A DNA stretch of 47,700 nucleotides, taken from a bacterium (GTDB lineage: Bacteria; JACRDZ01; JAQUKH01). A program made the position numbers and the translations under genes. Location: positions 1-47,700 of the forward strand of contig JAQUKH010000022.1 of the NCBI GenBank assembly GCA_028719205.1, given 5' to 3'. The notes under the pieces are model-generated. The model did not search any database, had not been told where the DNA came from, and saw nothing but the letters and a program-made list of their open reading frames with translations. Shown piece after piece: positions 1,616 through 38,590 of this stretch (its first letter is position 1; each line of letters begins with the position of its first letter).

Positions 1616-1644
1616 GGATGCCGGCAATAATCCTTATTAAAGAA

Positions 1645-1704
1645 GAAAAAAGTCAGAAAAAAACAGAACCACCACCTTTATCTTTTTTTGGAAAAGTGTA
1701 ATAT
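1645..1704 (+). promoter_or_regulatory. Island promoter module copy 1
   Basis: GAAAAAAGTCAGAAAAAAACAG; TTTATC 1677-1682; TAATAT 1699-1704. Confidence 0.8.
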
Positions 1705-6285: not shown

Positions 6286-7599
6286 ATGCGGGTTTTATTG
6301 ATCTCTTCAAATACCTCTAAGTCACCCTTTCCGGTTTATCCCATTGGCTGCAGTTTGATCTCAGCCGCGTTAACTTGCGCGGGCCATGAAACATCGATCT
6401 ATGATTTTTTAGAACGTAAACATTCATTTGATACGCTCGAGAAAGAAATAAAAAATGTTAATCCGGGGATAATAGGGATATCCATTCGAAATATTGACAA
6501 TACCAACATGCTTAATGAAAAATATTATATAGATGACATCAAAAATATCGTAAAAAAAATCAAAAATATTACAAATGTGCCGCTGGTTTTGGGAGGAGCG
6601 GGATTCTCGCTCATGCCTGATATTATTTTAAAAGAAACAGGGGCTGATTATGGAATAATCGGCGAGGGAGAATCCTTAATGGCTGATTTTGTCAATGACG
6701 CTGGCCGGGGAATTTTTCCCGGGGAGCGTATTATAAGAGGAAATAATAAAATTTCAGGGATAGAAATTCCACGGGCTGTATATGAGCCTGATTTGATGAA
6801 TTATTATTTGAGCAGGAAAAGTATTATCCCGATCCAGACTAAACGTGGATGTAACCACAGGTGTGTTTATTGCACTTATCCTTTTTTGGAAGGAACCAAA
6901 ATCCGTCCGAGAGATCCCGATTCAGTTATTGATGATATCGAAATGCTTGCTGAAAAATATAAAGTAAAATATATCTCTTTCAATGACGCGGTTTTTAATG
7001 ATGATGGAGGCCTTTATCTCGATCTTATGGAAAAAATGGAAAGGCGTAGCGTAAAAATATCATGGTTTAGTTTTTTTAAGCCGAAGGGCTTGACTAAAGA
7101 TATTATTGAATTGATGAAGCGGACCGGCCTTTCAGCCGCGGAGATCGGCTCGGACGCGGTTACAAACAGTACACTAAAGAAATTAGGGAAAGATTTTTCT
7201 TTTCAGAATATTTTAGATTGTAATAATTTGTTTAGTGGATCCGGGATCCCTGTCTCGCATTTTGTAATGTTTGGCGGGCCGGGTGAAACGAAGGAAACGG
7301 TACTGGAAGGGATTAAAAACATAAAAGCTTTAAAAAATTCTATCTTGTTTATTTTTATGGGGATAAGGATATTGCCAAATACTTCTCTTTCCAGTATCGC
7401 GATCGATGAAAAAATTATTGCGTCAAATACTGAATTACTCAAACCTGTTTATTATATTTCACCCGCGATTGATAAAGACTGGCTTAAGGAAACCCTGGCA
7501 AACGCTTTTTCTAATAATGAAAACTATATATTTCCTCCTGATGAAATTCAAATGGCAAAGGTATTTTTTAAATCCATAGAAAAAAATATTTCTCATTAA
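6286..7599 (+). CDS. B12-binding radical SAM protein (lipid-biosynthesis type)
   Basis: N-terminal PVYPIG and SIRNIDN cobalamin-domain motifs; RGCNHRCVYCTY; ketosynthase context. Confidence 0.85.
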   Translation: MRVLLISSNTSKSPFPVYPIGCSLISAALTCAGHETSIYDFLERKHSFDTLEKEIKNVNPGIIGISIRNIDNTNMLNEKYYIDDIKNIVKKIKNITNVPLVLGGAGFSLMPDIILKETGADYGIIGEGESLMADFVNDAGRGIFPGERIIRGNNKISGIEIPRAVYEPDLMNYYLSRKSIIPIQTKRGCNHRCVYCTYPFLEGTKIRPRDPDSVIDDIEMLAEKYKVKYISFNDAVFNDDGGLYLDLMEKMERRSVKISWFSFFKPKGLTKDIIELMKRTGLSAAEIGSDAVTNSTLKKLGKDFSFQNILDCNNLFSGSGIPVSHFVMFGGPGETKETVLEGIKNIKALKNSILFIFMGIRILPNTSLSSIAIDEKIIASNTELLKPVYYISPAIDKDWLKETLANAFSNNENYIFPPDEIQMAKVFFKSIEKNISH

Positions 7600-7603
7600 A
7601 GTA

Positions 7604-7663
7604 GAAAAAAGTCAGAAAAAAGCAGAACCATCACCTTTATCTTTTCCCGGGAAAGTGTAATAT
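7604..7663 (+). promoter_or_regulatory. Island promoter module copy 2
   Basis: GAAAAAAGTCAGAAAAAAGCAG; TTTATC 7636-7641; TAATAT 7658-7663; nearly identical to copy 1. Confidence 0.8.
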
Positions 7664-16466: not shown

Positions 16467-16582
16467 ATTTTCTTTTTCCGGGATATATTTTAGTTTTTAC
16501 TTACCTTAATTCTATTAAAATAATTTATTTTCTCAAAAGATTCTGCCGGTGTCAATTTAAATCTTATCTAAGAACCGGAGTG

Positions 16583-16642
16583 GTGAAAAGTCAATAAAAA
16601 ACAGATTCAGCCAATAGATATATTTTTCATAAAATATATAAT
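16583..16642 (+). promoter_or_regulatory. Island promoter module copy 3
   Basis: GTGAAAAGTCAATAAAAAACAG; TAGATA 16615-16620; TATAAT 16637-16642. Confidence 0.75.
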
Positions 16643-16663: not shown

Positions 16664-17290
16664 ATGTTTAACGATAGAAAAGACGCGGGAAAAAAATTGG
16701 CTAAAGCATTAGAAAAGTATAAAAATAAAAATGTTGTTGTGCTTGCCATACCGCGCGGCGGGGTGGAAGTCGGTTACGAGGTCGCGAAATACCTCAATGC
16801 TGAATTATCCGTAATAGTTTCACGAAAACTCCCTTCGCTGGAAAATCCTGAATCGGGGTTCGGAGCAATAGCGGAGGATGGCAGTCTTTTTATGTTTGAT
16901 TTCGCGAAAAGGATATATTCCACGGAAGTAATCAATAGAATTATTGAAGAACAAAAATCCGAGATAAAAAGAAGAATCCAATTATTCAGGAAAGGAAAGG
17001 CGCTTCCGGAGATTAAAGGAAAAACTGTTATACTTGTTGATGACGGGATCGCGATGGGTTCCACTATATACGCGTCAATACTTTTATGCAGAAATAAAAA
17101 AGCAGGGGAAATTATAGTCGCGGCTCCCGTATCAGGAATGGATACTAAAGAGATTATTAAAGAAGCGGCCGATGAAGTTATTATTCTGGAAACACCTGAT
17201 TCATTCCATGCCGTTGCTGAGTCTTATTTAAATTGGTATGATGTGCCGGATGAAGAGGTGATAAAGATATTGAACAAATTTGGTAATTAG
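16664..17290 (+). CDS. Phosphoribosyltransferase family protein
   Basis: FNDRKDAG, LAIPRGG, VILVDDGIAMGST PRPP loop. Confidence 0.9.
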   Translation: MFNDRKDAGKKLAKALEKYKNKNVVVLAIPRGGVEVGYEVAKYLNAELSVIVSRKLPSLENPESGFGAIAEDGSLFMFDFAKRIYSTEVINRIIEEQKSEIKRRIQLFRKGKALPEIKGKTVILVDDGIAMGSTIYASILLCRNKKAGEIIVAAPVSGMDTKEIIKEAADEVIILETPDSFHAVAESYLNWYDVPDEEVIKILNKFGN

Positions 17291-17292
17291 TG

Positions 17293-17353
17293 GAAATAAG
17301 TCATAAATAAGCAGACTCCGGCCATTTACATTATTTAAAAAAATAAATAATAT
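17293..17353 (+). promoter_or_regulatory. Island promoter module copy 4
   Basis: GAAATAAGTCATAAATAAGCAG; TTTACA 17325-17330; 17 bp; TAATAT 17348-17353. Confidence 0.8.
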
Positions 17354-17372
17354 TATGTGGGAGGATGTTATT

Positions 17373-18914: not shown

Positions 18915-20687
18915 ATGCTTGATGTTAAACGAAATAATCTCGACAGATCATTGTCTCCATATCTCATACAGCATGTATCAAATCCTGTCTGGTGGCAGGA
19001 ATGGAGCACGGAGATAATAAATGAAGCGGTTCGGGAAAATAAACCGCTATTTGTTTCCGTGGGTTACGCTACTTGCCACTGGTGTCATGTCATGGCTGCC
19101 GGCGCCTTTTCAGATAAAGAAACTGCCGATTATCTTAACAAACATTTTATCTGTATCAAGGTGGATCGGGAACAAAGGCCGGACATCGATAAATTATTAA
19201 TGAATTTTTTAACCGTACAGAGCGGAAGCGGCGGCTGGCCGCTTAATGTATTCCTAACCCCGGAGGTTCATCCTATATTCGCGCTTACTTTTGCACCGGC
19301 AAGTTCCAGCGGTTCAATGAAATCTTTTTTAACTATTGCCGGAAAAGTTTATGAATATTATCAAAACAATGTGGATAAAATTCAGCAATTTGAAGAAAAT
19401 GAAGAACAGCCAGGGGTTGTTGCTGAAGAATCTATAGTAAAAAAAATATCAGCTTATTTTGACCATGATAACGGCGGTTTTGGGAACAGGCAAAAATTTC
19501 CTCCGCATTCAACTTTATTATATCTTTTGTATTTTATCTGTGTTGATAATAACGCGGATGCTGTAACTATTTGTGTAAAAACACTCGATGCCATGCGTTT
19601 GCGGGGATTGAATGACCACTTACAGGGTGGTATTTTCCGTTACTGCGTCGGCCCTGAGTGGTCTATTCCCCATTTTGAAAAAATGCTCTATGACCAGGCT
19701 ATGGCTTTATGGTGTTATTCTTTAGCCTATAAGGTAATTAAAAAAAAAGAGTATATGTTGATGGCTGATAATATTATAAGGTGCCTTGAGGAATGTTTTG
19801 AACAGAATGGATTATTTATATCGGCGCATGACGCGGATACAGGACACGTGGAGGGAGCGGCCTATACCTGGAGTTATGATGAGCTGAAAAAGGTCCTTTC
19901 ACCCGGTGAATTTAAAAAGTTTAGTGATTCCTATCAAATTGAAAGGAGCGGTAATTTCGAAGGTAAAATACATCTGATCAGAAAAAATGATAATGATCTA
20001 TCAGAGATAGAGAATAAATTGCTTCGCATTCGCAAGCTTAGAGCTCAGCCTGAAAGTGATAATAAAATTCTTTGCGGACTGAACGCTTTAACCGCGATAG
20101 CAATGATACAGGCGGGACGGTATCTGGAAAAACCGCTTTATGAGGAAAAAGCATCAAAGATCACACACAGCCTGATGGATTTATTCTGGGACGGAAAGAC
20201 ACTTGGCCACTCCTTTTATAATGGCGCAACGCAAAAACAAAGTTTTTTATTTGATGCCGCCGCGATGCTTACCCTGATCAGTATGCTTTATGAAAATGAT
20301 GGATTCTGGGGCGCCATGATGGACACAATGATTGCCTGTGTACTATCATTTAAAGACTCCGGGAAATGGATCGAATCAAGAGCGGAAGATTTTCAAACAG
20401 TGTACGCTTCGTGGTCTGATAATCCTATTCCTTCCAGTATAGGCCTGGCAGAAATGGGTTTAACTCGCGCGGCTATGCTCACAGGAAAACCGGCAGGATC
20501 GAAACAATACAGGCAGCCGCTTCAATGCGATTTTTTTAATATCACTGAGATGATAAACAACGGCCTTTTCCATATAATTACAGCTGAAAATATTATTCCA
20601 TGGAGTAAATTACAGCCGAATACGCTTCAGAAACGCGGGAAAACCGAAACTGACTGCTACAAGGGAACATGCAAGATGTTTGGGTAG
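18915..20687 (+). CDS. Thioredoxin-domain protein, YyaL/DUF255 family
   Basis: SPYLIQH, CHWCHVM, KVDREQRPDID, GGWPL, PHFEKMLYDQA. Confidence 0.9.
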   Translation: MLDVKRNNLDRSLSPYLIQHVSNPVWWQEWSTEIINEAVRENKPLFVSVGYATCHWCHVMAAGAFSDKETADYLNKHFICIKVDREQRPDIDKLLMNFLTVQSGSGGWPLNVFLTPEVHPIFALTFAPASSSGSMKSFLTIAGKVYEYYQNNVDKIQQFEENEEQPGVVAEESIVKKISAYFDHDNGGFGNRQKFPPHSTLLYLLYFICVDNNADAVTICVKTLDAMRLRGLNDHLQGGIFRYCVGPEWSIPHFEKMLYDQAMALWCYSLAYKVIKKKEYMLMADNIIRCLEECFEQNGLFISAHDADTGHVEGAAYTWSYDELKKVLSPGEFKKFSDSYQIERSGNFEGKIHLIRKNDNDLSEIENKLLRIRKLRAQPESDNKILCGLNALTAIAMIQAGRYLEKPLYEEKASKITHSLMDLFWDGKTLGHSFYNGATQKQSFLFDAAAMLTLISMLYENDGFWGAMMDTMIACVLSFKDSGKWIESRAEDFQTVYASWSDNPIPSSIGLAEMGLTRAAMLTGKPAGSKQYRQPLQCDFFNITEMINNGLFHIITAENIIPWSKLQPNTLQKRGKTETDCYKGTCKMFG

Positions 20688-20747
20688 AAATAAGTCATAA
20701 AAAAGTAACTAGGTGCCATTTACACTTTAAGGGAATTATAATAATAT
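20687..20747 (+). promoter_or_regulatory. Island promoter module copy 5
   Basis: GAAATAAGTCATAAAAAAGTAA; TTTACA 20719-20724; 17 bp; TAATAT 20742-20747. Confidence 0.8.
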
Positions 20748-20939: not shown

Positions 20940-20971
20940 AAGTTGTTTCGACTGAAAGTGAAAAACTTATT

Positions 20972-21805: not shown

Positions 21806-24201
21806 GAAAAACATCTCTCGAAAAATATAGCCGGAAAAGAAAATTTGAGTTCACACCCGAACCCGCTGCCCTTAAGTTTGTGGTTCAAAAACACAACGCG
21901 AGAAGCCTGCATTATGATTTTCGCCTTGAGGCCGGCGGTGTGTTAAAAAGCTGGGCGGTTCCTAAAGGGATTTCTGATGATCCCGAAGTAAAAAGGTTGG
22001 CGGTCCAGGTTGAAGACCATCCCATCGAATACGCGGAATTTCACGGGGTAATTCCCGCGGGAAATTACGGGGCCGGTACCGTGGATATCTGGGATAAGGG
22101 AACGTATTTTGTTGATCCGGATTATGCGCGTTCTTCCAACGAACAAAGCATCCTTAATGGTTTAGAAAAGGGGCATATTAATTTTTTTTTGAAAGGTGAA
22201 AAACTTTCAGGGGAATATTCTCTGGTTCACATGAAAAACCCCGCCACGGCGGGCAGGCAGGATAAAGACAACAAGTGGCTGATTATAAAAAAAAAAGATT
22301 CGCACCTGATTGGGAAATCAGGTATAACCGATGATGAACTAAGATTATTAGGCGCGAATAAAGCTAAAATGCCGCTTTTTTTTAAACCTATGCTCGCGGA
22401 GGCGGCTGAAAAACCTTTTGACTCCGCGGATTGGTATTTTGAAATAAAGTGGGATGGTTACAGAGCCCTTGCATTTATCAAAAACGGCAAAGTGAAATTA
22501 TACTCACGCAACAAAAAATTATTTAACGCGTATTTCCCCGTGGTTATAGATTCTCTTTCAAGAATATCCGACGCTGTTATAGACGGTGAGATCGTTGTCC
22601 TTGACGAAACAGGAAGGCCTTCTTTCCAGTTACTGCAGGATTACATGAAATCCAGGGAGGGAATTCTGGTTTATTACATTTTTGATATCATTTATTACCG
22701 CGGTTTTGATTTAAGTAACCTTTCGTTGTCACAAAGATCCTTAGTTTTAAATAAAGTTTTTCCTGAATTGCCGCATCTTAAAATAAGCGGCCACGTTGAA
22801 AAAGACGGTATAAAGTTTTATGAATCCGCACGGACAAACGGCCTTGAAGGCATTATGGCTAAGCGCCTTGACAGCCTCTACCATCCGGGAGTCAGAAGCC
22901 GGGATTGGCTGAAACTAAAAATATTGAACAGGGAAGAGGCGGTAATATGCGGCTTTACCAAACCGCGTGGGTCGCGTGGTTTTTTCGGTTCATTAGTGCT
23001 TGGAATGTATAAAGATAAGAAGCTTGAGTTTATCGGCCAGGTGGGAACAGGTTTCGATGAATCAAGCCTTGAAGAGATTTACAAAAAGCTAAAACCTCTG
23101 GTAACAGGTATAAATCCTTTTGGGAAAGAGATAACCGGCCTGAGACAGGCCCGCCGCGGCGGGCAGGTCAGCCCGCCGTGGCGGGTTACCTGGGTAAGGC
23201 CTGAACTTTTATGTGAAATAAAATTTTCCGAGTGGACCAGGGAAGGGAAAATGCGCATGCCCGTTTTTCTCGGGCTCAGGCTTGATAAAAAAGCCCGGGA
23301 TGACCGTGTCCACCCAACCAATCTTCAAAAAATATTCTGGCCGGAAGAAAAATACACCAAGGGTATGCTTATTGAATATTATTACCGCGTCGCGCCATAT
23401 ATGCTAAAATATCTTAAAGACAGGCCGGAATCTATGAACCGTTTTCCGGATGGCATAGAAGGTGAAAGTTTTTATCAAAAGAATGCGGGAGAAATTGTGC
23501 CGGATTGGATACAAACAATTAAGATATTTTCTGAGAGTGAAAAAAAAGAAATAGATTATCTTGTTTGTAATGATGAAGTGTCGCTTATCTTTATGGTTAA
23601 CCTTGGATGCATAGAGATCAATCCCTGGAATTCGCGGATAAACAGCCTTTCAAATCCTGATTACGCGGTTTTTGATCTTGATCCTGAGGATATTCCTTTT
23701 ACAAAGGTGGTCGAAACAGCCCTTTTTATTCACAACCTGTTAGATGAAATAGGCGCGTCTAATTATTGTAAAACCTCAGGGGGAAGAGGCCTTCATATTT
23801 ATGTGCCCCTGAACGCGAGCTATTCATATGATCAGGCGCGCGAATTTGTTCATATTATAAGCCTGATAACAAATAAAAATATGCCCGGTATTACAAGCCT
23901 GGAACAGCCCCCTGAAAAAAGGGGAAAAAAGGTTTATCTGGATTTTCGACAAAACGCAAGGAGCAAAACCATGGCCGCGGTATACTCAATCCGGCCTCGT
24001 AAAGGTGCTCCTGTTTCGACGCCGCTTTTATGGAATGAACTTAAGCCGGATCTGTCTCCTCTTGATTTCACCATAAAAACAATTGATAAACGTATCAATG
24101 AAAAAGGAGATTTATGGGAAGGCCTGCTCAGGAAAAATATAGACATGAATAAATGCCTCGAAAACTTGTATAAGCTTTTTCCAGGCGAAAAAAGTCAATA
24201 A
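21802..24201 (+). CDS. ligD: DNA ligase D (phosphoesterase-ligase-polymerase)
   Basis: FVVQKHNARSLHYDFRLE, EIKWDGYR, EGIMAK, FDLDP, KTSGGRGLH. Confidence 0.95.
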   Translation: MRKTSLEKYSRKRKFEFTPEPAALKFVVQKHNARSLHYDFRLEAGGVLKSWAVPKGISDDPEVKRLAVQVEDHPIEYAEFHGVIPAGNYGAGTVDIWDKGTYFVDPDYARSSNEQSILNGLEKGHINFFLKGEKLSGEYSLVHMKNPATAGRQDKDNKWLIIKKKDSHLIGKSGITDDELRLLGANKAKMPLFFKPMLAEAAEKPFDSADWYFEIKWDGYRALAFIKNGKVKLYSRNKKLFNAYFPVVIDSLSRISDAVIDGEIVVLDETGRPSFQLLQDYMKSREGILVYYIFDIIYYRGFDLSNLSLSQRSLVLNKVFPELPHLKISGHVEKDGIKFYESARTNGLEGIMAKRLDSLYHPGVRSRDWLKLKILNREEAVICGFTKPRGSRGFFGSLVLGMYKDKKLEFIGQVGTGFDESSLEEIYKKLKPLVTGINPFGKEITGLRQARRGGQVSPPWRVTWVRPELLCEIKFSEWTREGKMRMPVFLGLRLDKKARDDRVHPTNLQKIFWPEEKYTKGMLIEYYYRVAPYMLKYLKDRPESMNRFPDGIEGESFYQKNAGEIVPDWIQTIKIFSESEKKEIDYLVCNDEVSLIFMVNLGCIEINPWNSRINSLSNPDYAVFDLDPEDIPFTKVVETALFIHNLLDEIGASNYCKTSGGRGLHIYVPLNASYSYDQAREFVHIISLITNKNMPGITSLEQPPEKRGKKVYLDFRQNARSKTMAAVYSIRPRKGAPVSTPLLWNELKPDLSPLDFTIKTIDKRINEKGDLWEGLLRKNIDMNKCLENLYKLFPGEKSQ
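22240..22261 (+). repeat. GC-rich palindromic mini-repeat within ligD
   Basis: CCCGCCACGGCGGGCAGGCAGG. Confidence 0.75.
23150..23185 (+). repeat. Two GC-rich palindromic mini-repeats within ligD
   Basis: CCCGCCGCGGCGGGCAGG and CCCGCCGTGGCGGG. Confidence 0.8.
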
Positions 24202-24247
24202 AAAGAGGATTCAGCCAATTTACATTTTTTTACTTTCTTTATAAGAT
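24187..24247 (+). promoter_or_regulatory. Island promoter module copy 6 (overlaps ligD stop)
   Basis: GAAAAAAGTCAATAAAAAGAGG; TTTACA 24219-24224; 17 bp; TAAGAT 24242-24247. Confidence 0.8.
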
Positions 24248-27395: not shown

Positions 27396-29960
27396 TTACC
27401 ATGTTAAATTACTATGGTTTTTACTATGGCAGTTGATAGTGCATTTCCCGCCTGTATAATTTGCATTAGTAATAATTGTTAAATTAGCTCCGGTCATCGG
27501 GCTTGTATCTAAGTTTGTAAAATGATTAACAGGAAGTTTATTTATATCATGACATTCAACACAAGTGATACCCGCGCTTATATGAAAGCTATGCCTGCCG
27601 GAAGAATAGCTGTTAAATTCTGTTGTTCCTGAGATATGACATAAATTACATTGTGTGTTTATGTTAATACTTCCGTTTAACCAATTAGGTGTTGTTTGTC
27701 CTCCATGGCAGCTTACCTTCGCGCAAGTTACGTTCAGGCCGTTATACGCGAGATTTCCAGATTTTGCTTTATAAACATTATTAAAAATTACATCCGTGGT
27801 ATTATTAATATGTTTATTTGTATTAGCGCCCGCGCCTGTGTGACAGGATGAACAATTTACATTTATAAACGCGGTATGCACCGCGTGGCTGCCTGCTATA
27901 TTCGGATATGCTGAGCCTGACGGTGGTGTGGCATGGCATGTAACACAATTTGAAATTGTTAACGGCCATATATGACAACTTAAACAAGATGGCCCGCTTC
28001 CGGTAACACCTGTCAAACTTGCTCCGTGACAATTTATATTAGCGCATTTAGTTGTGCCATTGGTTTTTGCGTATGAACTGTGATTAAATCTTACGTCAGG
28101 GTACCATGCAGTCATATGCACCTTCGTCTGGTTCTCCATATGGCAAATATTACAAGCAACTTTAGACCCGCCGCCGAGATAGTTTGTTCCATGACATTTC
28201 TGGCAGGAAGTAATGTTTGCAACTGCGTTAGTTTTATGATTTGGAATAATCCATGCAGCGGCAGGGTGGTTAACTCCCGGCCCGTTATGACAGTTGAAAC
28301 AACTTATACCCGAAGTTCCGCCCTTGAAATCAGTCCCATGACAGGTTTGACATGCAGAGAAATCCACTTCGGCTGTAATACCGTGGTTAGCCGGTAAGTT
28401 CCAGTTTGAAGGATGTGTGCCCGTAAAAGGCCATGCATGACAGCTCGAACAAGAAGGCCCGCTCCCGGCGATACCTGTAAGATTAGCTCCGTGACAGTTT
28501 ACATTAGCGCATTTAACTGTGCCATTAGTTTTAGTATAAGCCCTGTGATTAAGCTGGACGTCAGGGTACCATGCAGCCATATGCACCTTCGTCTGGTTCT
28601 CCATATGGCAGATATTACAAGCAACTTTAGACCCGCCGCCAAGATAGTTTGTTCCGTGGCATTTTTGGCACTGTGAAATGTTTGCGACAGCGTTAGTTTT
28701 ATGATTAGGAATGATCCAGGCCGCGGCAGGGTGGTTAACCCCCGGACCGGTATGGCAGTTAAAACAACTTATATTTGCAGTGCCGCCCCTGAAATCAGTT
28801 CCGTGACAAGCCTGACAGGCCGAGAAATCCAATTCAGCGATAATCCCATGTTCAGCCGCCAATTTCCAATCCGAAGGATGGCGGACATAAGGCCATATAT
28901 GACAGCTCGAACAAGAAGGCCCGCTTCCTGTAACACCTGTCAAACTTGCTCCATGACAATTTACATTAGCGCATTTAGTTGTTCCGTTAGCTTTAGCATA
29001 AACCCTGTGATTAAGCTGAACATCCGGATACCATGCAACTATATGTACCTTAGCCTGGGTTTCCATATGGCAAATATTACAGGCTACTTTAGCCCCGCCG
29101 CCTGAATAATCAATTCCATGGCATTTTTGACACATTGTTAAACTCGAGAGAGCGTTATTCTTATGATCCGGAACAATCCAGGAAGCAGTGGAATGATTTA
29201 ACCCGGGGCCCTGGTGGCACTTGTAACAGCTTACTCCGCTTATTCCTCCTTTATAATCACTTCCGTGGCATGATGAACAAGCAGGAAAATCTTTTATGGC
29301 AGTTTCTCCGTGCTTCTCAGCTAAATCCCAGCCTGTTGAATGTTCTTTATTTGAATGGCATAGAGTATTATTAAAACATCCCGGCTGTGTTCCTTCAGGT
29401 GCTGAAGGATTTGGTTTGAGAACGGAATTCGCGCCGTTAGAATGACAATATACACAAATATTCGCGTTATTTATGTCGGTATTTGTATGGGTTGCTGATG
29501 TATCACTTCGCCAGGGAGCCTTAGAATGCGGCGCGTTGACAGAGTGGCAGGTAAAACAAGATTTATTTATGTTCCCGCCTGAAAAATCCTCGCCGTGACA
29601 GGACTGGCAGTTGGAAAAACCTTTTAATTTACCGGGAGCGGATTTAGCCGCGCTTCCATGTGCGGTTAACCATTCCGCGGTATGTTCAAAAGGCCCATCC
29701 GCATGGCACGATGTTCTGTTAAAATCAGCGGAAAAACAGCTTACATTTGAAATTCCGCCATTACGATCTGCTCCGTGGCATTCGGCGCAGTTGTTTTTAT
29801 TTGAAAGGAACGCGGCCCTATGATCTGAAATCCAGTTTTCAGCGTGCTCTCCGGTAGTCGGATTAATGATCGATTTTTTATTCCTGTCGCTGCAGCCCGC
29901 GTAATATAAAAATATAATGGAAAAGAGAACCGTTAAAATAAAATTTTTTAATTTTATCAC
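27396..29960 (-). CDS. Large multiheme c-type cytochrome lipoprotein (~30 heme motifs)
   Basis: GTG start, lipobox YAGC; 23 CxxCH, 4 CX4CH, one each CX3CH, CX5CH, CX9CH; C-terminal CxxxxCH..CxxCH domain. Confidence 0.92.
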   Translation of the reverse strand: MIKLKNFILTVLFSIIFLYYAGCSDRNKKSIINPTTGEHAENWISDHRAAFLSNKNNCAECHGADRNGGISNVSCFSADFNRTSCHADGPFEHTAEWLTAHGSAAKSAPGKLKGFSNCQSCHGEDFSGGNINKSCFTCHSVNAPHSKAPWRSDTSATHTNTDINNANICVYCHSNGANSVLKPNPSAPEGTQPGCFNNTLCHSNKEHSTGWDLAEKHGETAIKDFPACSSCHGSDYKGGISGVSCYKCHQGPGLNHSTASWIVPDHKNNALSSLTMCQKCHGIDYSGGGAKVACNICHMETQAKVHIVAWYPDVQLNHRVYAKANGTTKCANVNCHGASLTGVTGSGPSCSSCHIWPYVRHPSDWKLAAEHGIIAELDFSACQACHGTDFRGGTANISCFNCHTGPGVNHPAAAWIIPNHKTNAVANISQCQKCHGTNYLGGGSKVACNICHMENQTKVHMAAWYPDVQLNHRAYTKTNGTVKCANVNCHGANLTGIAGSGPSCSSCHAWPFTGTHPSNWNLPANHGITAEVDFSACQTCHGTDFKGGTSGISCFNCHNGPGVNHPAAAWIIPNHKTNAVANITSCQKCHGTNYLGGGSKVACNICHMENQTKVHMTAWYPDVRFNHSSYAKTNGTTKCANINCHGASLTGVTGSGPSCLSCHIWPLTISNCVTCHATPPSGSAYPNIAGSHAVHTAFINVNCSSCHTGAGANTNKHINNTTDVIFNNVYKAKSGNLAYNGLNVTCAKVSCHGGQTTPNWLNGSININTQCNLCHISGTTEFNSYSSGRHSFHISAGITCVECHDINKLPVNHFTNLDTSPMTGANLTIITNANYTGGKCTINCHSKNHSNLTW
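27960..29345 (-). repeat. Three tandem 154-155-aa six-heme repeats
   Basis: CCATATGGCA anchors at 28136, 28601, 29063 (465 and 462 nt apart). Confidence 0.9.
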
Positions 29961-30099: not shown

Positions 30100-30759
30100 T
30101 TGAAAGATTTTAACCGAAAATTTAAAGATATGAAAAGAGGAATAGGGGAATATATATATAATATCAGGGAAAAAAACGGCGGTAAAGGTTTCTGGTCATT
30201 AAGATCGGTTGCTAAGCGCGCGAAAATTTCAGATGCTTATCTGTCTCAGCTTGAAAATGGAAAAGTAAAACATCCTCTGCCGGACATCTTAAGAAATATC
30301 TCGATAGCCTGCCGTCAGCCTTACGAAGATTTTCTTTGCGCGGCAGGATATCTTACACCTAAACAAAAAACACCGAAAATTTTGGAAATACCTGTATATA
30401 AAGACGTGCCGGACGATAAGACAGATTTAATTTACGATGAAATAATTTCTATTAATTATGAATTTATCGGGAATAATAACTGCTTCGCGCTTAAAATGAA
30501 AGGCGATTACCTTAATGATAATGGTATTTCCAAAGGGGATATAATCATTGTAAGCCGGGATGTTGAATGTAAAAATGGAGATCTGGTTATCGCGAGAATT
30601 ACGGATTTGTGTAAAATAAAGACATTTTATAAACTTCAGAGCAATCCTCACCCAAAAATAGTGCTTCAGCCATGCCGGGATAAATGTGAATCCGCCATTC
30701 TTTTGTCGGAAGAAATTGAAATTATAGGCAAAATTACCCAAACAATTAAAAGAATGTAA
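30100..30759 (+). CDS. XRE-HTH plus S24-like (LexA/CI-type) repressor, catalytically degenerate
   Basis: SLRSVAKRAKISDAYLSQLENG; FALKMKGDYL; GDIIIV; IEIIGKI; start may be 30130. Confidence 0.8.
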   Translation: MKDFNRKFKDMKRGIGEYIYNIREKNGGKGFWSLRSVAKRAKISDAYLSQLENGKVKHPLPDILRNISIACRQPYEDFLCAAGYLTPKQKTPKILEIPVYKDVPDDKTDLIYDEIISINYEFIGNNNCFALKMKGDYLNDNGISKGDIIIVSRDVECKNGDLVIARITDLCKIKTFYKLQSNPHPKIVLQPCRDKCESAILLSEEIEIIGKITQTIKRM

Positions 30760-30793
30760 AAGCCGCTTCTTAGCTGTATTCCTCATTAGGGTA

Positions 30794-30854
30794 GAAAAAA
30801 GTCAATAAAAAGCAGAATCAACACCTTTTTTTCTCAAAATAAAAAGTGTATCAT
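30794..30854 (+). promoter_or_regulatory. Island promoter module copy 7
   Basis: GAAAAAAGTCAATAAAAAGCAG; TATCAT 30849-30854; weak -35. Confidence 0.8.
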
Positions 30855-30895
30855 GAAAAAAGTAAAAAATAAATTTCACTAAAAAGGAGAGTAAT

Positions 30896-31504
30896 ATGAA
30901 AAAAGTATTTAGTTTAAAGTTATTTATCGCCTTATTGTGCCTGTTTTATTCAAGTATTGCACATGCTGAATCTTTGGAAACATCAAAAGCGGATAAAAGT
31001 TTATTTGAAACGAAATGCTCTTATTGCCATGAGATCGAGAGGCCTCTTTCAAAAAGAAAAAACAAGGACGGATGGACGGCTACAGTAAAAAGAATGCAGT
31101 CTAAAAATCCTTCTCATATAAGTGATGCGGAGGCAGAAAGTATCATTGCTTATTTATCGTATGAAAGAGGAGAAGAAGCGCCTGTTAACAGGATCAAAGA
31201 CCCTTCTAACCTTTCAGAGCTTGAGAAAAAACATGTCCCGGTAATTCAAATCGGGTCTGGAGATGTTGAGAAAAAAATTGTAACAATTACCGTGAAAGTT
31301 GGAGAAGTACCGCACCCGATGGAGGCAACACATTATATAAAATATATTGAACTTTTTATTGATGGTAAATCAGCCGGGAAAGTTGACCTCAAACCGGGCG
31401 ATAAACCGGAAGCAAGTTTTAATGTGTCCGGAGCGGCGGGTAAACGCGTTACCGCGCGTGAGGAATGTAATCTTCACGGCCTGTGGGAAGGCGAAGCCAG
31501 ATAA
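30896..31504 (+). CDS. Exported cytochrome c-superoxide reductase fusion
   Basis: Signal peptide [32 protein letters not shown]. Confidence 0.85.
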
Positions 31505-31569
31505 ACAGGCCTATATAAATTACTGAAATATTAAACAAATATATTATTTCATATTAATTAATTTAATAA

Positions 31570-31597
31570 TTGAAATCTTAAAATGGGGGAGTATAAT
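31570..31597 (+). promoter_or_regulatory. sigma70-like promoter of the regulator operon
   Basis: TTGAAA-16 bp-TATAAT, without the AAGTCA module. Confidence 0.55.
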
Positions 31598-31637
31598 TAA
31601 ACTGTATTATTACTAACAATAAAAAATGGAGTAATAT

Positions 31638-32369
31638 ATGCCGGATAAAATATTAATTGTGGATGATGATGAAGCTTTCAGGTCGGAGTTTAAAGAATTA
31701 TTTGATTATTATGATGTAATAGAGGCTTCGGATGGACAATCCGCTTTGAAATTATTAAAGTCGGCAAATGATATCGGCCTTATTCTTCTGGATGTAATGA
31801 TGCCGGGAATAAGCGGTATCGAGGTTTTAAAAGAGATAAAAAAGACGGATCCGGATGTAGGAATTGTGATTTTAACAGGTTATAGTTCAAAAGACTTGGC
31901 GATCAAGGCATTAAAAGGGCATGCTGATGATTATATTGAAAAACCGATAGACCTCAATAAAACAAGAGAAATTATTGAAAAGGCGTTTGAAAATAAACGG
32001 GGAGAAGATAAGATAAATACAGGAGATATACCGGGCAAGATAGAAAAAGTAAAAAGTTTTATTAAAAGGAATTGTTATAAAAAAACATCTTTAACAGATG
32101 TGTCTAAAGCAGTTTGTCTCAGTCCGAAATATTTAAGCAGAATATTTAAAAACAGCACTGGTGTAAACTTTATCGAATATAAGTTGAGAATAAAAATGGA
32201 AAAGGCAAAGGAGCTTCTGGTTAAAACGGGTTACAACGTGAATCAGATCTCGGATAAATTAGGATATGAGAACGCTGAATCTTTTATCAGGCAATTCAAT
32301 AAACTTGCAGGTTCTACTCCCACGGAATACCGGAGGAAATATTTAAAAAAGAAAAATAAAAAGTTATGA
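31638..32369 (+). CDS. Response regulator REC-AraC HTH (YesN-like)
   Basis: ILIVDDD, LLDVMMP, KP; LSPKYLSRIFK..LGYENAESFIRQF..TPTEYR. Confidence 0.92.
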   Translation: MPDKILIVDDDEAFRSEFKELFDYYDVIEASDGQSALKLLKSANDIGLILLDVMMPGISGIEVLKEIKKTDPDVGIVILTGYSSKDLAIKALKGHADDYIEKPIDLNKTREIIEKAFENKRGEDKINTGDIPGKIEKVKSFIKRNCYKKTSLTDVSKAVCLSPKYLSRIFKNSTGVNFIEYKLRIKMEKAKELLVKTGYNVNQISDKLGYENAESFIRQFNKLAGSTPTEYRRKYLKKKNKKL

Positions 32370-34567
32370 AGAAAAGGTCAATAGAAACAAAAGATAAATT
32401 TATCAAAGAAAAAAAGCAAATCCAAAACGCGTTAAAGCAAGCTGAAGATAAATACCGTTCTATTGTTGAAACCGCCCAAGAGGGTGTATCGATTGTTAAT
32501 ATTGATGGAAAGGTCACATACGTGAATAAACGTATGGTAGAAATGTTAGGTTATACGGAACAGGAAGTGATCGGAGTATCTTTTTTAAAGTTTCTGGATG
32601 AGAAAGAGCAGACATATATTCAGGAAAATTTAGAACGAAGAAAAAGAGGAATCAGGGAGAGGCGTATTTTTAAAAAAGACGGTTCATCTCTCTGGGCGCT
32701 TGAATCTATCAGTCCTTTATTAGACGCGAATGGCAAAGTAAATGGACAGCTTATAATGATCACGGATATTACTGAGCGCAAAAAGGCGGAGGAAATACTT
32801 AGAAGAACAAACAATGAACTGGAATCCAAAACGAATCAGTATACGGCTGAATTGGAGGAAAAAAATAAACAACTGCAGAAGGAGGTCCAGGAGCGTTATT
32901 ATATGGAAAAACGCATTCTGGCGAGTAATACGATACTTAAATTATTGACTACATCATCCTCATATGGTAAATACCTGAATTCTGTAATTAAATATATACG
33001 TAACATAACTAATTGTAAATGTGTGGGTATAAGAATATTAAATGAGAAGGGGCAGATCCCATTTGAATCGTATATGGGTTTAAGCCAGGGATTTTGGGAA
33101 TCGGAAAACTTGCTTTCAATAAATAAAGACCAGTGTGTTTGTATCAGGGTAATTACAGGGAAGCCAAAAGTTCAAGATATTAAAGTGACGAGCCATGGCG
33201 GGTCATTTTATTGTAACCACCTAATAAAATTCATTAATGAACTTTCTGATGAAGAAAGAGCTGAATTCAGGAACGCGTGTGTCAAACATGGGTTTCATTC
33301 AATTGCCGTTATCCCGATCAACTACAAAAATAAAATATTAGGGGCAATACATATCGCGGATGAAAGAGCGGATATGGTACCTTTGAAGATAATAGAGATT
33401 ATTGAGCCATTAACACCTATGATCGGTGAAGGTGTTTACAGGTTCAGCCTGGATGGCAGGCGGGCTGAGGTTGAAAAAAAATTACGTGAGTCAAACGCGA
33501 TATTAGAAACAATATTCAGCAGCGCCAATTTTTTAATCGCTTATATGGACCAATATTTTAATTTTATCCGTGTTAACCAGATTTACGCGCAGTTACAGGG
33601 ATATACTCCTGAGTTCTTTACAGGGAAACATTACTTTGATCTGTACCCGGGTGAAAATGAAAGATCAATCTTTGAAAAAGTGGTTAAAACCGGCGAAGGA
33701 TATTCGACTTATTCCAAACCTTTGGGATCGGAAGGACAGCCCGGGCAGAAAATTACTTTTTGGGATTGGAGCATCCAGCCGGTAAAAGATTCCCATGGTA
33801 AAGTTAAAGGGCTTGTTTTCTGTTTGATAGATGTTACTGAACGGAAACGCGCTGAAGAAGAATTGATAAAGGCTCAAAAAAGAGAAATTGAATCAAAACG
33901 ACTTTCTGACATAGGCACTCTGGCCGCGATGGTTGCCCATGAATTACGTAATCCCCTGGGAGTAATTCAAATGGCCGCGTATAATATAGGTAAAAAATCC
34001 AAGGATGCATTTCTTAACAGCCATATAACAAATATAGAAAAAAAGGTATCAGAAAGCAATCAGATCATTAATAACCTTTTAAGCTATTCACGGATAAGAG
34101 TGCCGCACATTGAAAAAATAAATATTTTGAACTTGCTGGATGAATGCGTTAATTTAGCGGGGAAAAGATTTTTTAATTATGAAGTCACGGTTAACAGGAA
34201 TTTTAATTTGTTAAAAGAAGAATTTATTGAAGCGGATCCAATTCAGATGAGAGAGATTTTTATTAATATTTTAAATAACGCTTATCAATCCTTACCGGAA
34301 AAAAAAGGCAAAATAGAGGTAAATGCCGCGCGAAATGGTAATGACATTATTAATATAAACATTAAGGATAACGGGTGCGGGATAAACAAAGAAGATCTGC
34401 CAAAAGTTTTTGACACGTTTTTTACAAAAAAATCAAAAGGAACAGGTTTGGGACTTACTATTTGTAAAGAATTAGTGGCTATGCATGGCGGCGATATATA
34501 TATCGAAAGTGAACCCGGGGAAGGCACAAATATTAATATAAATCTGCCAATAAGAGGAAAGATATAA
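32366..34567 (+). CDS. Cytoplasmic PAS-GAF-PAS histidine kinase
   Basis: No TM; PAS/PAC, Cys-rich GAF-like segment, AHELRNPL, KGTGLGL; ATGA coupling to regulator. Confidence 0.88.
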   Translation: MKKRSIETKDKFIKEKKQIQNALKQAEDKYRSIVETAQEGVSIVNIDGKVTYVNKRMVEMLGYTEQEVIGVSFLKFLDEKEQTYIQENLERRKRGIRERRIFKKDGSSLWALESISPLLDANGKVNGQLIMITDITERKKAEEILRRTNNELESKTNQYTAELEEKNKQLQKEVQERYYMEKRILASNTILKLLTTSSSYGKYLNSVIKYIRNITNCKCVGIRILNEKGQIPFESYMGLSQGFWESENLLSINKDQCVCIRVITGKPKVQDIKVTSHGGSFYCNHLIKFINELSDEERAEFRNACVKHGFHSIAVIPINYKNKILGAIHIADERADMVPLKIIEIIEPLTPMIGEGVYRFSLDGRRAEVEKKLRESNAILETIFSSANFLIAYMDQYFNFIRVNQIYAQLQGYTPEFFTGKHYFDLYPGENERSIFEKVVKTGEGYSTYSKPLGSEGQPGQKITFWDWSIQPVKDSHGKVKGLVFCLIDVTERKRAEEELIKAQKREIESKRLSDIGTLAAMVAHELRNPLGVIQMAAYNIGKKSKDAFLNSHITNIEKKVSESNQIINNLLSYSRIRVPHIEKINILNLLDECVNLAGKRFFNYEVTVNRNFNLLKEEFIEADPIQMREIFINILNNAYQSLPEKKGKIEVNAARNGNDIININIKDNGCGINKEDLPKVFDTFFTKKSKGTGLGLTICKELVAMHGGDIYIESEPGEGTNININLPIRGKI

Positions 34568-34965
34568 TGCCTGCTAAAATATTTATAATTGATGATGATA
34601 AAGAATTATGTGAGGAAGTAATAGAGATCATGAGAGATGAGGGATATTTGATAAGCGCTGAATATGATGGTTTAAAGGGAAAAGAAGCGGTTGAAAAAGG
34701 TGGATATGATCTTTTGCTTTTAGATCTTAAACTTCCCGGGTTAAGCGGGTTTGACGTTCTTAAGCAGATAAGAGAAAAAAATATCAGGATAAAAGTTATC
34801 ATAGTAAGCGGAAGGCCTCAATATAACGGTTTATTTAACGAGAATGCAGTTTGTAAAAACAAGGATAAGGAAGAAGAAGAAATCCTGAAATTAGCAGACG
34901 GAATTATCAGCAAGCCTTTTGAGATAAAAATAATGTTGAATAAAATTAAAGAGCTTTTAACTTAA
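34567..34965 (+). CDS. Single-domain response regulator
   Basis: IIDDD, LLLDLKLP, SKPF. Confidence 0.88.
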   Translation: MPAKIFIIDDDKELCEEVIEIMRDEGYLISAEYDGLKGKEAVEKGGYDLLLLDLKLPGLSGFDVLKQIREKNIRIKVIIVSGRPQYNGLFNENAVCKNKDKEEEEILKLADGIISKPFEIKIMLNKIKELLT

Positions 34966-35007
34966 AATTATTTGTTATCTGCCTTCCATCATCTCTCCTT
35001 CTATTGA

Positions 35008-35068
35008 GAAAAAAGTCAGAATAAAGTAGAACTATCATCTTCATTTTAATGTAAAAAAAGTTTATTAT
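35008..35068 (+). promoter_or_regulatory. Island promoter module copy 8
   Basis: GAAAAAAGTCAGAATAAAGTAG; TTCATT 35040-35045; 17 bp; TATTAT 35063-35068. Confidence 0.8.
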
Positions 35069-35094
35069 TAAAATCAAAAAGGAGATTAACTTTT

Positions 35095-36573
35095 ATGAGG
35101 AGAATTATATTTTTAACTTTAATAATATGTTTTATTATTTCATCCTTTATTTTTGCTGACGAAGAAGAAATAATAGTAGAAGAAACAACCGGACAGGAAT
35201 TAATAGAAATGCCGGTGAAAAATGAAATTAAAGAAAGTCCGGTGGAATACGAAAAAGATTTCTTGGATTTTATAAAATTAAGAACGGAAAAGTTTGCTGA
35301 GCAGGATATGTGCGGGGAATGCCATTCTGATATATTTAAGCAATGGAAAGGTTCAACACACAGCAAAGCGTTTATTGATCCAATTTGGCGCGCGGCGACA
35401 AAACTATTTTACAGTGAATCTAAAACGATAGGGCAGGTCCTTGAAATTAAACTCTGCGTAAATTGTCATATACCGCTTGGTTTCACTTCTAATATTATTA
35501 ATCTTCCTATTGATAATTATAATAGATTAATGGAACTTCCGGAACAGGGGGCTTTCTGTAACTGGTGTCATAATTTAAAGGAGGCAGTAAATATTGGCGG
35601 TGAAGGATATATGGACGCAGATACAACAGAAGCGTATTCATCAACAATGCTTGGTCCTCGTGATGACCCAAGGTGGGAAAATCCTTCAAAAGATAACAAA
35701 GCTTTTCATCCTTCAGAATATTCAGAGTTTTACTCAAAATCCGATTTTTGCGGATTATGCCATAATATGTATCAGCCGGATAATAAACTTCCTATAGTGC
35801 AAACTTATGATGAGTGGAAGAAAAGTCCATATAACACAAACGACCCTAAAACTACTGTAACCTGCCAGGATTGCCATATGAGGCAAAAACCGGGAATTCC
35901 TGCCACAGGAAGCACGTTAAGGCCTGATAATTCAGGACAAGCGGCAGACGGAGGCCCGTACAGGGATAACATTTGGACGCATTATTTCGCGGGAGGAAAT
36001 TCAATAATTCCAAAACTTTTAGGGAGCGAAATGCATTCTTATCTGGCTATCGAAAAGCTCACAAATTCGGCCGGATTAGAGATAATCAGGGATAGTTCTT
36101 ATGAAAAAGGTAAAGCATCACAGATAAAAGTCAAAGTTACTAATTCCGGCGCGGGACATTATTTGCCGACAGGTATGACCGCGATCAGGCAAATGTGGCT
36201 TGATATGAAAATTACAGACCGGGATGGAATTATGATCTTCAGGTCCGGCGCGATGGATAAAGAAGGGAATTTTGACAAAAATACAATTCTCTTTAACACT
36301 GTTTTTGGAAATAAAAACGGAGAACCTGTAATGAATTTCGCGCTTGCGGATAAAATTCTTTATGACCATAGAATTCCTCCTATGGAATCTGTTATTGAAA
36401 ATTACAGTTTTATTATTCCGGAAAATACAGTTTTCCCGCTTAAGGTTGAAGTTATTTTAAAGTATCGCACCGCGTCACCGGACTTTGTTAAAAAGCTTCA
36501 AGTTGATAAAGTCTCGAATACAGAAATTCCCGTTATTGATATGGTAAGTTTGACGGAAAAAATAGATTTATAG
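35095..36573 (+). CDS. Exported pentaheme c-type cytochrome, paralog of 17373-18899
   Basis: CGECH, CVNCH, CNWCH, CGLCH, CQDCH; long identical stretches with the paralog. Confidence 0.9.
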   Translation: MRRIIFLTLIICFIISSFIFADEEEIIVEETTGQELIEMPVKNEIKESPVEYEKDFLDFIKLRTEKFAEQDMCGECHSDIFKQWKGSTHSKAFIDPIWRAATKLFYSESKTIGQVLEIKLCVNCHIPLGFTSNIINLPIDNYNRLMELPEQGAFCNWCHNLKEAVNIGGEGYMDADTTEAYSSTMLGPRDDPRWENPSKDNKAFHPSEYSEFYSKSDFCGLCHNMYQPDNKLPIVQTYDEWKKSPYNTNDPKTTVTCQDCHMRQKPGIPATGSTLRPDNSGQAADGGPYRDNIWTHYFAGGNSIIPKLLGSEMHSYLAIEKLTNSAGLEIIRDSSYEKGKASQIKVKVTNSGAGHYLPTGMTAIRQMWLDMKITDRDGIMIFRSGAMDKEGNFDKNTILFNTVFGNKNGEPVMNFALADKILYDHRIPPMESVIENYSFIIPENTVFPLKVEVILKYRTASPDFVKKLQVDKVSNTEIPVIDMVSLTEKIDL

Positions 36574-36633
36574 TGAAAAAGTCAGAAAAAAGGGGAAGCA
36601 GCCAATTTACATTTTTTTTAAAAAGTATATTAT
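36574..36633 (+). promoter_or_regulatory. Island promoter module copy 9
   Basis: TGAAAAAGTCAGAAAAAAGGGG; TTTACA 36606-36611; TATTAT 36628-36633. Confidence 0.8.
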
Positions 36634-36672: not shown

Positions 36673-37038
36673 ATGAGAAAAAAAGTGATGATCATAGATG
36701 ATGACAAGGTATTTTTAGAGGAACTTAATGAGGTTCTAATTTCAGGCGGATATGATGTTGTTACTGTTAATGATCCGGTTTTAGCTTTTAATATGGTTGA
36801 TAAAACAAAACCGGATGTTATTCTGGTCGACATGAAAATGCCTTCGATGAGCGGGTTTGAAGTCGCGAATGAATTAAAAAATTTTTTAGGATATGATTTT
36901 ATCCCTATTATAGGGATGAGCGGATTTTATAGAGATAACGACATATCGTTAATGAATATGTGCGGTATTCAAAAGTGCCTTAATAAACCGTTTCGTCCGT
37001 TAGATGTAATTTATAATATTGAGAAAGTAATGGGATGA
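36673..37038 (+). CDS. Single-domain response regulator
   Basis: IIDDD, LVDMKMP, NKPF. Confidence 0.88.
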   Translation: MRKKVMIIDDDKVFLEELNEVLISGGYDVVTVNDPVLAFNMVDKTKPDVILVDMKMPSMSGFEVANELKNFLGYDFIPIIGMSGFYRDNDISLMNMCGIQKCLNKPFRPLDVIYNIEKVMG

Positions 37039-38244: not shown

Positions 38245-38264
38245 TTTAAAGAAATAATAAAACG

Positions 38265-38325
38265 GAAAAAAGTCAGAAGAAAGTGGCATTAGCCAATTCA
38301 CATTTTTCAGGAGAAAGCTTATTAT
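38265..38325 (+). promoter_or_regulatory. Island promoter module copy 10
   Basis: GAAAAAAGTCAGAAGAAAGTGG; TTCACA 38297-38302; 17 bp; TATTAT 38320-38325. Confidence 0.8.
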
Positions 38326-38395: not shown

Positions 38396-38590
38396 ATGAG
38401 ATGTCCAGTTTGTAGAAACATGATTATTTCCACTGACGGCAATAAACAGAAATTAAGAAGTAGAATAATCATTTTCAGCCATCATAAAGCTATGGCTAAA
38501 TGCCAGACATGTAAGACGGATGTCGAGGTTCCTATTAGATTCAATCGTAGTTATGAATTAACAAATAATAATATTCTAAGGGCCAGCTAG
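38396..38590 (+). CDS. Small zinc-ribbon-like protein
   Basis: AAGGAGG RBS; CPVC and CQTC. Confidence 0.7.
   Translation: MRCPVCRNMIISTDGNKQKLRSRIIIFSHHKAMAKCQTCKTDVEVPIRFNRSYELTNNNILRAS

Follow-up and report, generated by a model that had tools for sequence, protein, structure and literature searches.

Which protein reads the promoter element that recurs in front of putative stress genes on contig JAQUKH010000022.1 of the bacterial assembly GCA_028719205.1 (lineage Bacteria; JACRDZ01; JAQUKH01)? The stretch analyzed, positions 1 to 47,700 of the forward strand, is called the window below; it is contig C22 of a 68-contig, 2.59-Mb genome (G000) with a GC content of 37.6%. A first-pass annotation of this DNA had proposed, as master activator of the repeated element (here called the module), a response regulator in which a receiver domain (REC) is joined to an AraC-type DNA-binding domain. 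We consider it quite probable that this REC-AraC protein, as output partner of the adjacent kinase in a two-component system, activates about 35 module promoters. The analysis documents its domains, the motif, the promoter spacing, and the co-occurrence and linkage of regulator and module across genomes; from these we infer binding, phosphorylation dependence, dimer geometry and the sign of regulation.

The regulator gene opens an operon of three contiguous or overlapping plus-strand open reading frames (ORFs), which fill positions 31638-34965. The elements of the operon are:

31570..31597, plus strand, sigma-70-like promoter TTGAAA-16-TATAAT of the regulator operon, 11 of 12 matches

31638..32369, plus strand, REC-AraC response regulator of 243 aa (REC, short linker, AraC/XylS domain with two helix-turn-helix (HTH) motifs)

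32366..34567, plus strand, cytoplasmic PAS-(GAF-like)-PAS histidine kinase (Pfam PAS twice, HisKA, HATPase_c)

34567..34965, plus strand, stand-alone receiver, final gene of the operon (Pfam Response_reg only)

The REC domain of the regulator (residues 5-113) matches Pfam Response_reg with 96.4 bits against a cut-off of 30.2. The DNA-binding domain matches HTH_18 with 82.8 bits against a cut-off of 33.6, covering profile positions 2-80 of 80, and also matches Pfam HTH_AraC in two stretches. The linker comprises about 20 residues (about 115-135), with no further domain. The full phospho-acceptor set can be read from the sequence (D9-D11, D52, T80, Y99 and K102), and in an alignment of 51 regulator sequences, 50 retain D52, T80 and K102, while the other is a mis-framed translation. 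LSPKYLSRIFK and NAESFIRQF are the putative recognition helices. The former averages 89% identity across orthologues versus 58% for the whole DNA-binding domain, a conservation that parallels the nearly unchanged motif in other lineages.

As had been stated in the first-pass annotation, no other response regulator in the window has a DNA-binding domain: according to Pfam, such a domain is absent from the five other receiver ORFs (34567-34965, 10717-12246, 12254-12763, 36673-37038 and 37066-38244). Pfam also agrees with the earlier tally for the window, namely four kinases and three receivers that stand alone. Apart from response regulators, the DNA-binding proteins of the window are a LexA-like protein (30100-30759), a Fur-family protein (39685-40113) and a DtxR-like protein (42158-42799). 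To judge from gene order, the kinase 32366-34567 is likely the cognate kinase of the regulator. A homologue of it (at least 35% identity over at least 250 aa) was found in 33 of 50 orthologue loci. The four kinases and three stand-alone receivers may, as the first-pass annotation had it, converge on this regulator, but the adjacent kinase is the sole syntenic one.

With at most one mismatch allowed, the core pattern of the module was found 11 times in the window versus 1.37 ± 1.36 times in shuffled sequences, none of 100 shuffles reaching 11. All but one of these matches (10 of 11) are intergenic copies on the plus strand, among them a diverged one at 20686 and copy 9 at 36573. Nine strong copies and one weak copy are present in the window, and about 35 in the genome. 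A weight matrix made from the nine strong copies led to 32 good sites genome-wide, which were aligned; C2:32026 and C19:50202, both scoring at least 19, were dropped before alignment because their 3' halves did not match. The consensus over the genome's aligned sites is AAGTGGAAAAAAGTCAAAAAAAAGTGGAATCAGCCAATTTA, and the consensus as used in the mechanism proposed below is GTGGAAAAAAGTCAAnAAAAAGTGGAATcAGCCAATTTACA.

The aligned sites point towards a nearby ORF. An ORF starts 52-135 nt downstream in 28 of the 32 sites (one more ORF, at 42 nt, falls under the cut), and a TATAAT-like -10 hexamer begins 55-59 nt past the start of the site, likewise in 28 of 32. This fixed distance to the -10 box implies that the ~42-nt element spans about -71 to -30 and that TTTACA is the -35 hexamer; the module promoters thus read TTTACA, 16-17 nt, TATAAT-like box. 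Four G-containing cores, GTGG, GTCA, GTGG and GCCA, occupy columns 3-6, 13-16, 24-27 and 33-36, and their specific G/C positions hold most of the information of the module. Spaced 10, 11 and 9 bp apart, the cores all face the same side of the helix, the two types taking turns. GTGGAA is found at columns 3-8 and 24-29, exactly 21 apart, and AG(T/C)CAA at columns 12-17 and 32-37. When the matrix is compared with itself, the score peaks locally at shifts of 20-21 for the sites of this genome, and a shift of 21 is best for the sites of other genomes. As read from these alignments, the pattern is suggestive of two tandem bipartite units of ~21 bp rather than of a simple 11-bp repeat. The 11-bp-period site of the earlier description would be better described as two such units.

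The copies in the window and the genes behind them are:

1640..1686, plus strand, module copy, drives ORF 1717-2121 (no family)

7599..7645, plus strand, module copy, drives DUF6529-cytochrome c 7690-8457 and GH15 8470-10446

16578..16624, plus strand, module copy, drives phosphoribosyltransferase 16664-17290

17288..17334, plus strand, module copy, drives multihaem cytochrome 17355-18899 and DsbH-like thioredoxin 18915-20687

20682..20728, plus strand, weak, diverged module copy, drives YHS 20754-20939, Ku 20927-21805 and LigD 21802-24201

24182..24228, plus strand, module copy, drives desulfoferrodoxin-type superoxide reductase 24286-24678

30789..30835, plus strand, module copy, drives 30896-31504 (cytochrome c fused to superoxide reductase), the gene just before the regulator operon

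35003..35049, plus strand, module copy that immediately follows the regulator operon and drives multihaem cytochrome 35095-36573

36569..36615, plus strand, module copy (copy 9), drives stand-alone receiver 36673-37038 and REC-histidine kinase 37066-38244

38260..38306, plus strand, module copy, followed by a small ORF 38396-38590 and cytochrome c 38648-39070

The weak copy at 20682-20728 has a score of 18.4 with the position weight matrix (PWM) and a core match; it lies below reporting at E ≤ 0.01 by R1, a sequence-only covariance model made from the 32 aligned sites. Ku, LigD, GH15, a phosphoribosyltransferase and YHS, the cargo named at first pass, are indeed present behind module copies, and copy 9 precedes the receiver and the REC-kinase as claimed. 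Genome-wide, the module-linked genes encode, among others, two superoxide reductases, a ferritin-like protein, MsrAB, Hsp20 and YHS-Ku-LigD. Also behind module copies are genes for GH15, for dienelactone hydrolases, for two phosphoribosyltransferases, for a GalT-like enzyme together with a glycosyltransferase, for two paralogous multihaem cytochromes, the DsbH-like thioredoxin, pyruvate:ferredoxin oxidoreductase and a ferredoxin. Further cargo comprises a cyclopropane-fatty-acid synthase, a Bax-inhibitor-like protein, glyoxalase-like proteins, an outer-membrane efflux protein and receivers, as well as DUF2934, DUF1540, SHOCT and PEP-CTERM proteins and a 1468-aa Cu-oxidase-like protein. Judged by these predicted functions, general-stress regulon is a fair description of the cargo. 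The general-stress flavour noted from the window alone was thus reinforced by Hsp20, MsrAB, the superoxide reductases, the ferritin-like protein, the cyclopropane-fatty-acid synthase and Ku-LigD.

The two multihaem cytochrome genes with a module copy each (17355-18899 and 35095-36573) are paralogous, with 70-76% nucleotide identity over most of their length. Elsewhere in the genome, back-to-back module pairs on opposite strands, ~25-35 nt apart, stand between divergent genes (locus L001 on C8, 12399-12488 and 15710-15828; locus L006 on C3, 5956-6064). The plus-strand copy C8:12446 has no ORF within 400 nt.

Whole genomes were searched with R1 and with the regulator protein, and R1 matches were counted at E ≤ 1e-3 in the clade comparisons and at E ≤ 1e-4 in 50 further carriers of the orthologue. 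Strong sites were found in 14 of 15 carriers in three clades and in 35 of the 50 further carriers. Among genomes without the orthologue, 3 of 104 had R1 sites at E ≤ 1e-3, and G148 alone is a real exception. In the home phylum, sampled with six genomes, G001 of the same genus has an orthologue of 70% identity and 13 R1 matches, and G005 of another family has one of 69% identity and 14 matches. Neither orthologue nor R1 match was found in G002 (same genus), G003 and G004, where the best E values were 0.11, 0.0021 and 0.13, respectively. In a 71-genome sample of the order of G050, R1 matched 9 of 9 carriers versus 2 of 62 non-carriers (G106 with one weak match, G148 with three good ones), and in the order of G055 (8 genomes) it matched 3 of 3 carriers versus 0 of 5 non-carriers. 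G050 and G055 were chosen as centres because both features are present in them, and should therefore be left out of the counts. The 35 genomes from other phyla had at most one weak match each (best E 4.5e-4), with a single such genome among the 34 that lack the orthologue. The 50 further genomes were found through the orthologue and stem mostly from records labelled Candidatus Omnitrophota; the matches in 35 of them were obtained with a model trained on this genome alone.

The two features are also linked locally. In flanks of up to 10 kb around 50 orthologues, we found 51 R1 matches in 34 of the 50 loci versus none in 29 non-orthologous control loci. With one further match in a partial Omnitrophota locus, 45 of 52 matches were on the strand of the regulator. 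The wider PWM detected sites in five more orthologue loci and none in 462 kb of controls. In at least six genomes or loci (L090, L108, L117, L126, G102 and G126) the module lies directly upstream of the orthologue, and such a placement is, as far as gene order can tell, classic for a factor that controls its own gene.

The first ORF behind 49 flank matches was a stand-alone receiver in 23 cases, the regulator itself in three, a kinase in two and a REC-CBS protein in one; the remaining ones include DUF2934, DUF1540 and giant Cu-oxidase-like proteins, all of which are also in the regulon of this genome. A stand-alone receiver is therefore the commonest module-linked target across genomes. Most of these receivers (21 of 23) are most similar to 36673-37038 or to its C8 paralogue, both of which are module-driven here, and two of 23 to the operon's receiver 34567-34965. 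This distribution accords with the feedback through copy 9 that had been postulated; by its predicted promoter, one receiver or more would lie downstream of the regulator instead of feeding into it.

The situation at the operon itself is different. R1 matched no module in 31504-31638, upstream of the regulator operon. The TTGAAA-16-TATAAT match ranks top of 18 promoter-like matches in 30700-35200, but shuffled sequences gave 17.6 ± 3.9 such matches, and the match alone therefore proves nothing. Since no terminator-like site is predicted between 30896-31504 and the regulator gene, read-through from the module promoter at 30793 (copy 30789-30835) into the regulator is possible. The earlier statement of a plain promoter without a module thus holds in this genome, but not in the six or more others with a module upstream. 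Taken together, co-occurrence, conserved linkage and autoregulatory placement elsewhere argue for the REC-AraC protein as predicted activator at the module, as had been proposed.

In G102 (L169, 1484-6526) and G126 (L170, 2113-5082), the gene order is rpoN, module, REC-AraC and a small HTH_3 protein, and the G102 locus goes on with a V4R-PAS kinase and a receiver. In these two genomes the module variant GGAAACAGGACAG replaces GGAAAAAAGTCA, and the second recognition helix differs too. Except for these adjoining rpoN genes, no sigma gene was linked to the orthologue.

The regulator does not follow the genome phylogeny. Its identity to the G000 protein is 70% in G001 and 69% in G005, versus 92% and 47% for the LytTR regulator and 78% and 46% for Hsp20. 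Such an off-phylogeny pattern could reflect lateral transfer or replacement. Given that the regulator is equally similar in both genomes while other proteins share 46-47% identity with G005 and 78-92% with G001, regulator and promoter module may have spread between lineages together.

A number of observations weigh against the REC-AraC protein as the reader of the module. G148 has three module-like sites (E 3.9e-7 to 7.8e-5; L166:4569-4614, L167:4121-4159 and L168:2174-2220), all with proper spacing to a -10 box, and no HTH_18 protein in its 1.4-Mb assembly. A genome with the motif and no orthologue had been named at first pass as the finding that would speak against the regulator, so that the proposed co-occurrence is borne out by the carriers and non-carriers counted above, with this genome as the exception. 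G148, for which assembly completeness is not given, is either an assembly gap or a true counter-example. One of its sites sits after an MsrAB gene and before a pilin-like gene. Conversely, 15 of the 50 further carriers had no genome-wide R1 match at E ≤ 1e-4; eight of the 50 had no match in either R1 search, and in three of these eight the wider PWM found a flank site. G017, from another phylum, has a 39%-identical homologue and no R1 match. The second, classical AraC protein of the genome has the same distribution in the home phylum as the regulator, and the Hsp20 gene of the regulon was also not found in G002 and G003. Regulator, motif and cargo are thus absent together, which weakens the specificity of the co-occurrence, and as G002 is 0.5 Mb smaller than G000, the joint absence may partly be a binning effect. 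Related genomes are, moreover, non-independent samples. Co-occurrence cannot tell the regulator apart from other features that were passed on along with the regulon. As regards geometry, shift 21 is only a local maximum in the genome's own sites, the sub-site spacings differ by 1 bp, and A-richness also lifts self-similarity at shifts 6-11, so that the tandem-unit model is not proven. Finally, the -35 box (TTTACA) comes close to the consensus, whereas promoters that depend on an activator usually do not have such a box.

Some of these observations are what one would expect if a different DNA-binding protein, inherited with the regulon, bound the module, and the REC-AraC protein were only a linked member or target. 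G148 has the sites without any AraC-family protein, Hsp20 and other regulon genes share the patchy distribution and make co-occurrence alone unspecific, and a regulator gene behind a module, as seen in several genomes, might be found for any regulon member. Nevertheless, we regard this explanation as unlikely, as no other DNA-binding gene is conserved near module and orthologue. The LexA-like protein 30100-30759 and the small XRE protein of G102 and G126 have no homologue in any of the 50 orthologue loci. In addition, the asymmetric alternating cores that abut the -35 fit a two-HTH AraC domain. The LexA-like ORF, which combines HTH_3 with peptidase S24 and scores under the cut-off of the lexA equivalog, is located shortly before a module copy.

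The other candidate binders encoded in the genome were weighed in the same way. Its HTH_18 proteins are two, the REC-AraC regulator and a classical 316-aa AraC protein on C4; it also encodes two OmpR-type regulators, one LytTR regulator and four GerE-type proteins. The classical AraC protein was rejected as common binder, being absent from the nine motif-bearing genomes in the order of G050. In all nine genomes of that order that carry the orthologue, the orthologue is the sole HTH_18 protein; the other HTH_18 proteins of the order are one paralogue and one unrelated protein, in G106. The LytTR regulator adjoins module copy C29:13515, but it is kept in all five phylum relatives, including the motif-less ones, and was rejected as well: its orthologues are 88%, 48% and 44% identical in G002, G003 and G004, none of which has a module match at E ≤ 1e-3. 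A comparison of the LytTR promoter with that of G002 was uninformative, with synteny lost and a CRISPR-like repeat following the LytTR gene. This direct repeat (L076 on G002:C147, about 560-700) has a unit of ~25 nt in at least three copies; G000 has a module copy and the cyclopropane-fatty-acid synthase gene in its place.

With the REC-AraC protein retained as the preferred binder, we propose the following mechanism. The kinase 32366-34567 would phosphorylate the regulator on D52, and two copies of the regulator would bind head-to-tail to the ~42-bp module, each AraC domain reading a GTGG core in one major groove and a G(T/C)CA core in the next. Because the proximal unit runs into the TTTACA -35, the regulator would act as a class II activator touching RNA polymerase. 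The regulon of ~35 promoters would cover oxidative, protein-damage, DNA-break and envelope stress functions. The module-driven receiver 36673-37038 would probably feed back on the phosphorelay, as a phosphate sink or as a connector. The regulator would be expressed from its own constitutive-looking promoter, with read-through from the upstream module promoter as a possible addition.

The quality of the core promoter elements raises the question of sign. TTTACA, a 16-17-nt spacer and a TATAAT-like box might fire without an activator, and the site overlaps the -35, as it would if the REC-AraC protein were a repressor or anti-activator that occludes the -35 until a stress signal removes it. However, it may be the regulator, not sigma, for which TTTACA is conserved, and a position upstream of the -35 is the usual layout for AraC-family activators. 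The site reaches ~40 bp upstream of the -35 and does not extend over the -10 or the start site, which makes repression improbable in our view. In AraC itself, the half-site nearer to the promoter overlaps the -35 (PMC11983282).

It is also conceivable that the module needs no regulator at all, being an A-tract UP element or a promoter class read by the RNA polymerase alpha subunit or by an alternative sigma factor. The element is rich in A, has a phase of about one turn of the helix and is located at -70 to -40, where UP elements lie. Yet the specific G/C positions of GTGG, GTCA and GCCA hold most of the information. Furthermore, the element is missing from G002 of the same genus, where the LytTR regulator is 88% identical, and from 101 of 104 orthologue-less genomes at E ≤ 1e-3. 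The -35 and -10 look like ordinary sigma-70 boxes, and a regulon of an alternative sigma factor of the SigB, EcfG or RpoS type was rejected on the same grounds, the promoters carrying the housekeeping-type TTTACA, 16-17 nt and TATAAT-like hexamer. We consider it very improbable that the module works without a regulator.

Activation by the REC-AraC protein has a well-known counterpart in the AraC protein. According to PMC11983282, AraC binds at araI1-araI2 to 17-bp direct-repeat half-sites 4 bp apart (a period of ~21 bp), and the proximal half-site shares 4 bp with the -35. The module resembles this part of the E. coli PBAD promoter in that a two-HTH domain would be involved, GTGGAA recurs after 21 columns and the proximal end forms the -35; the araI-type overlap of proximal half-site and -35 at fixed -10 distance was found in 28 of 32 sites. 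In contrast to AraC at PBAD, control here would be exerted by a phospho-receiver instead of a sugar-binding dimerization domain, no distal operator or looping was seen, the target promoters number ~35 instead of a few, and binding is predicted.

REC-AraC regulators are a known class, of which 31638-32369 is a compact form. CuaR of Ruminiclostridium cellulolyticum, as portrayed in PMC10384115, has 538 aa with a 318-aa stretch between REC and HTH_AraC and controls a local sugar-uptake operon. Our regulator resembles CuaR and other YesN/AraC response regulators in having an N-terminal receiver with the conserved Asp and a C-terminal HTH_AraC domain, but differs from CuaR and typical YesN proteins in its length of 243 aa, its ~20-aa linker without a long middle region, and its apparent genome-wide stress regulon. 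Sequence matches in the PDB include the YesN DNA-binding domain (3lsg) and receivers labelled 'AraC family', the best being 12aw_A, a 'hybrid two-component system protein'. Against the NCBIfam equivalogs, 31638-32369 scores below every cut-off. In Bacteroides hybrid two-component systems with AraC-type output, DNA binding is phosphorylation-dependent according to PMC11253607. REC is followed by HTH_18 as in our regulator, but in the Bacteroides hybrids everything is fused in one membrane protein serving polysaccharide utilization loci, whereas the kinase here is separate and cytoplasmic.

Other systems share single aspects of the design. Pho boxes of the PhoB/OmpR type and LytTR repeats likewise consist of direct repeats along a single face of the DNA, next to the -35 or in its place; unlike these, the module alternates two types of core (GTGG and G(T/C)CA) instead of repeating one. 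MarA, SoxS and Rob have a minimal AraC-type two-HTH domain, bind an asymmetric box of ~20 bp near the -35 and serve a multi-gene stress regulon. Each of them works as a monomer at a single box, under the control of its abundance or of a ligand, whereas the site here is of double length and control would be by a receiver domain.

Some further features of the window were noted. GC-rich, 29-nt imperfect repeats lie inside the Ku and LigD genes (21755-23174), and against the 37.6% GC of the genome their composition may point to foreign origin. On the minus strand, 27396-29960 encodes an 854-aa multihaem cytochrome with three tandem units of ~465 nt that are 76-84% identical, and 12681-16466 a 1261-aa Cache-HAMP-PAS kinase with three repeated segments of ~300 nt in the PAS region. 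FeoB is split into a G-domain ORF (40092-40724) and a membrane-domain ORF (40699-42144) with a 26-nt overlap. The pair is flanked by the Fur-family and DtxR/FeoA-like regulators and may have been split naturally or by a frameshift.

Candidate phyla of the Omnitrophota type lack a cultured model organism, and to our knowledge their gene regulation has hardly been described; a full-text search of part of the literature gave no article that deals with a regulon of this kind there. The triplet of regulator, motif and regulon is concrete, and a single purified protein of 243 aa plus short pieces of DNA would suffice to test it; the module would offer a ready-made, portable inducible-promoter design. 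Textbook general-stress programmes are run by alternative sigma factors. It is possible, though short of probable, that in several uncultivated lineages (records mostly labelled Candidatus Omnitrophota, and the small phylum of this genome) a compact REC-AraC regulator replaces the alternative sigma factor as general-stress master switch, with a module-driven receiver closing a feedback loop. Membership in the regulon would assign a stress role to many uncharacterized genes, including those for DUF2934, DUF1540, DUF6529, TTHB210-like and giant Cu-oxidase-like proteins, and the findings suggest a general-stress programme that is run by a two-component AraC-type regulator with built-in receiver feedback.

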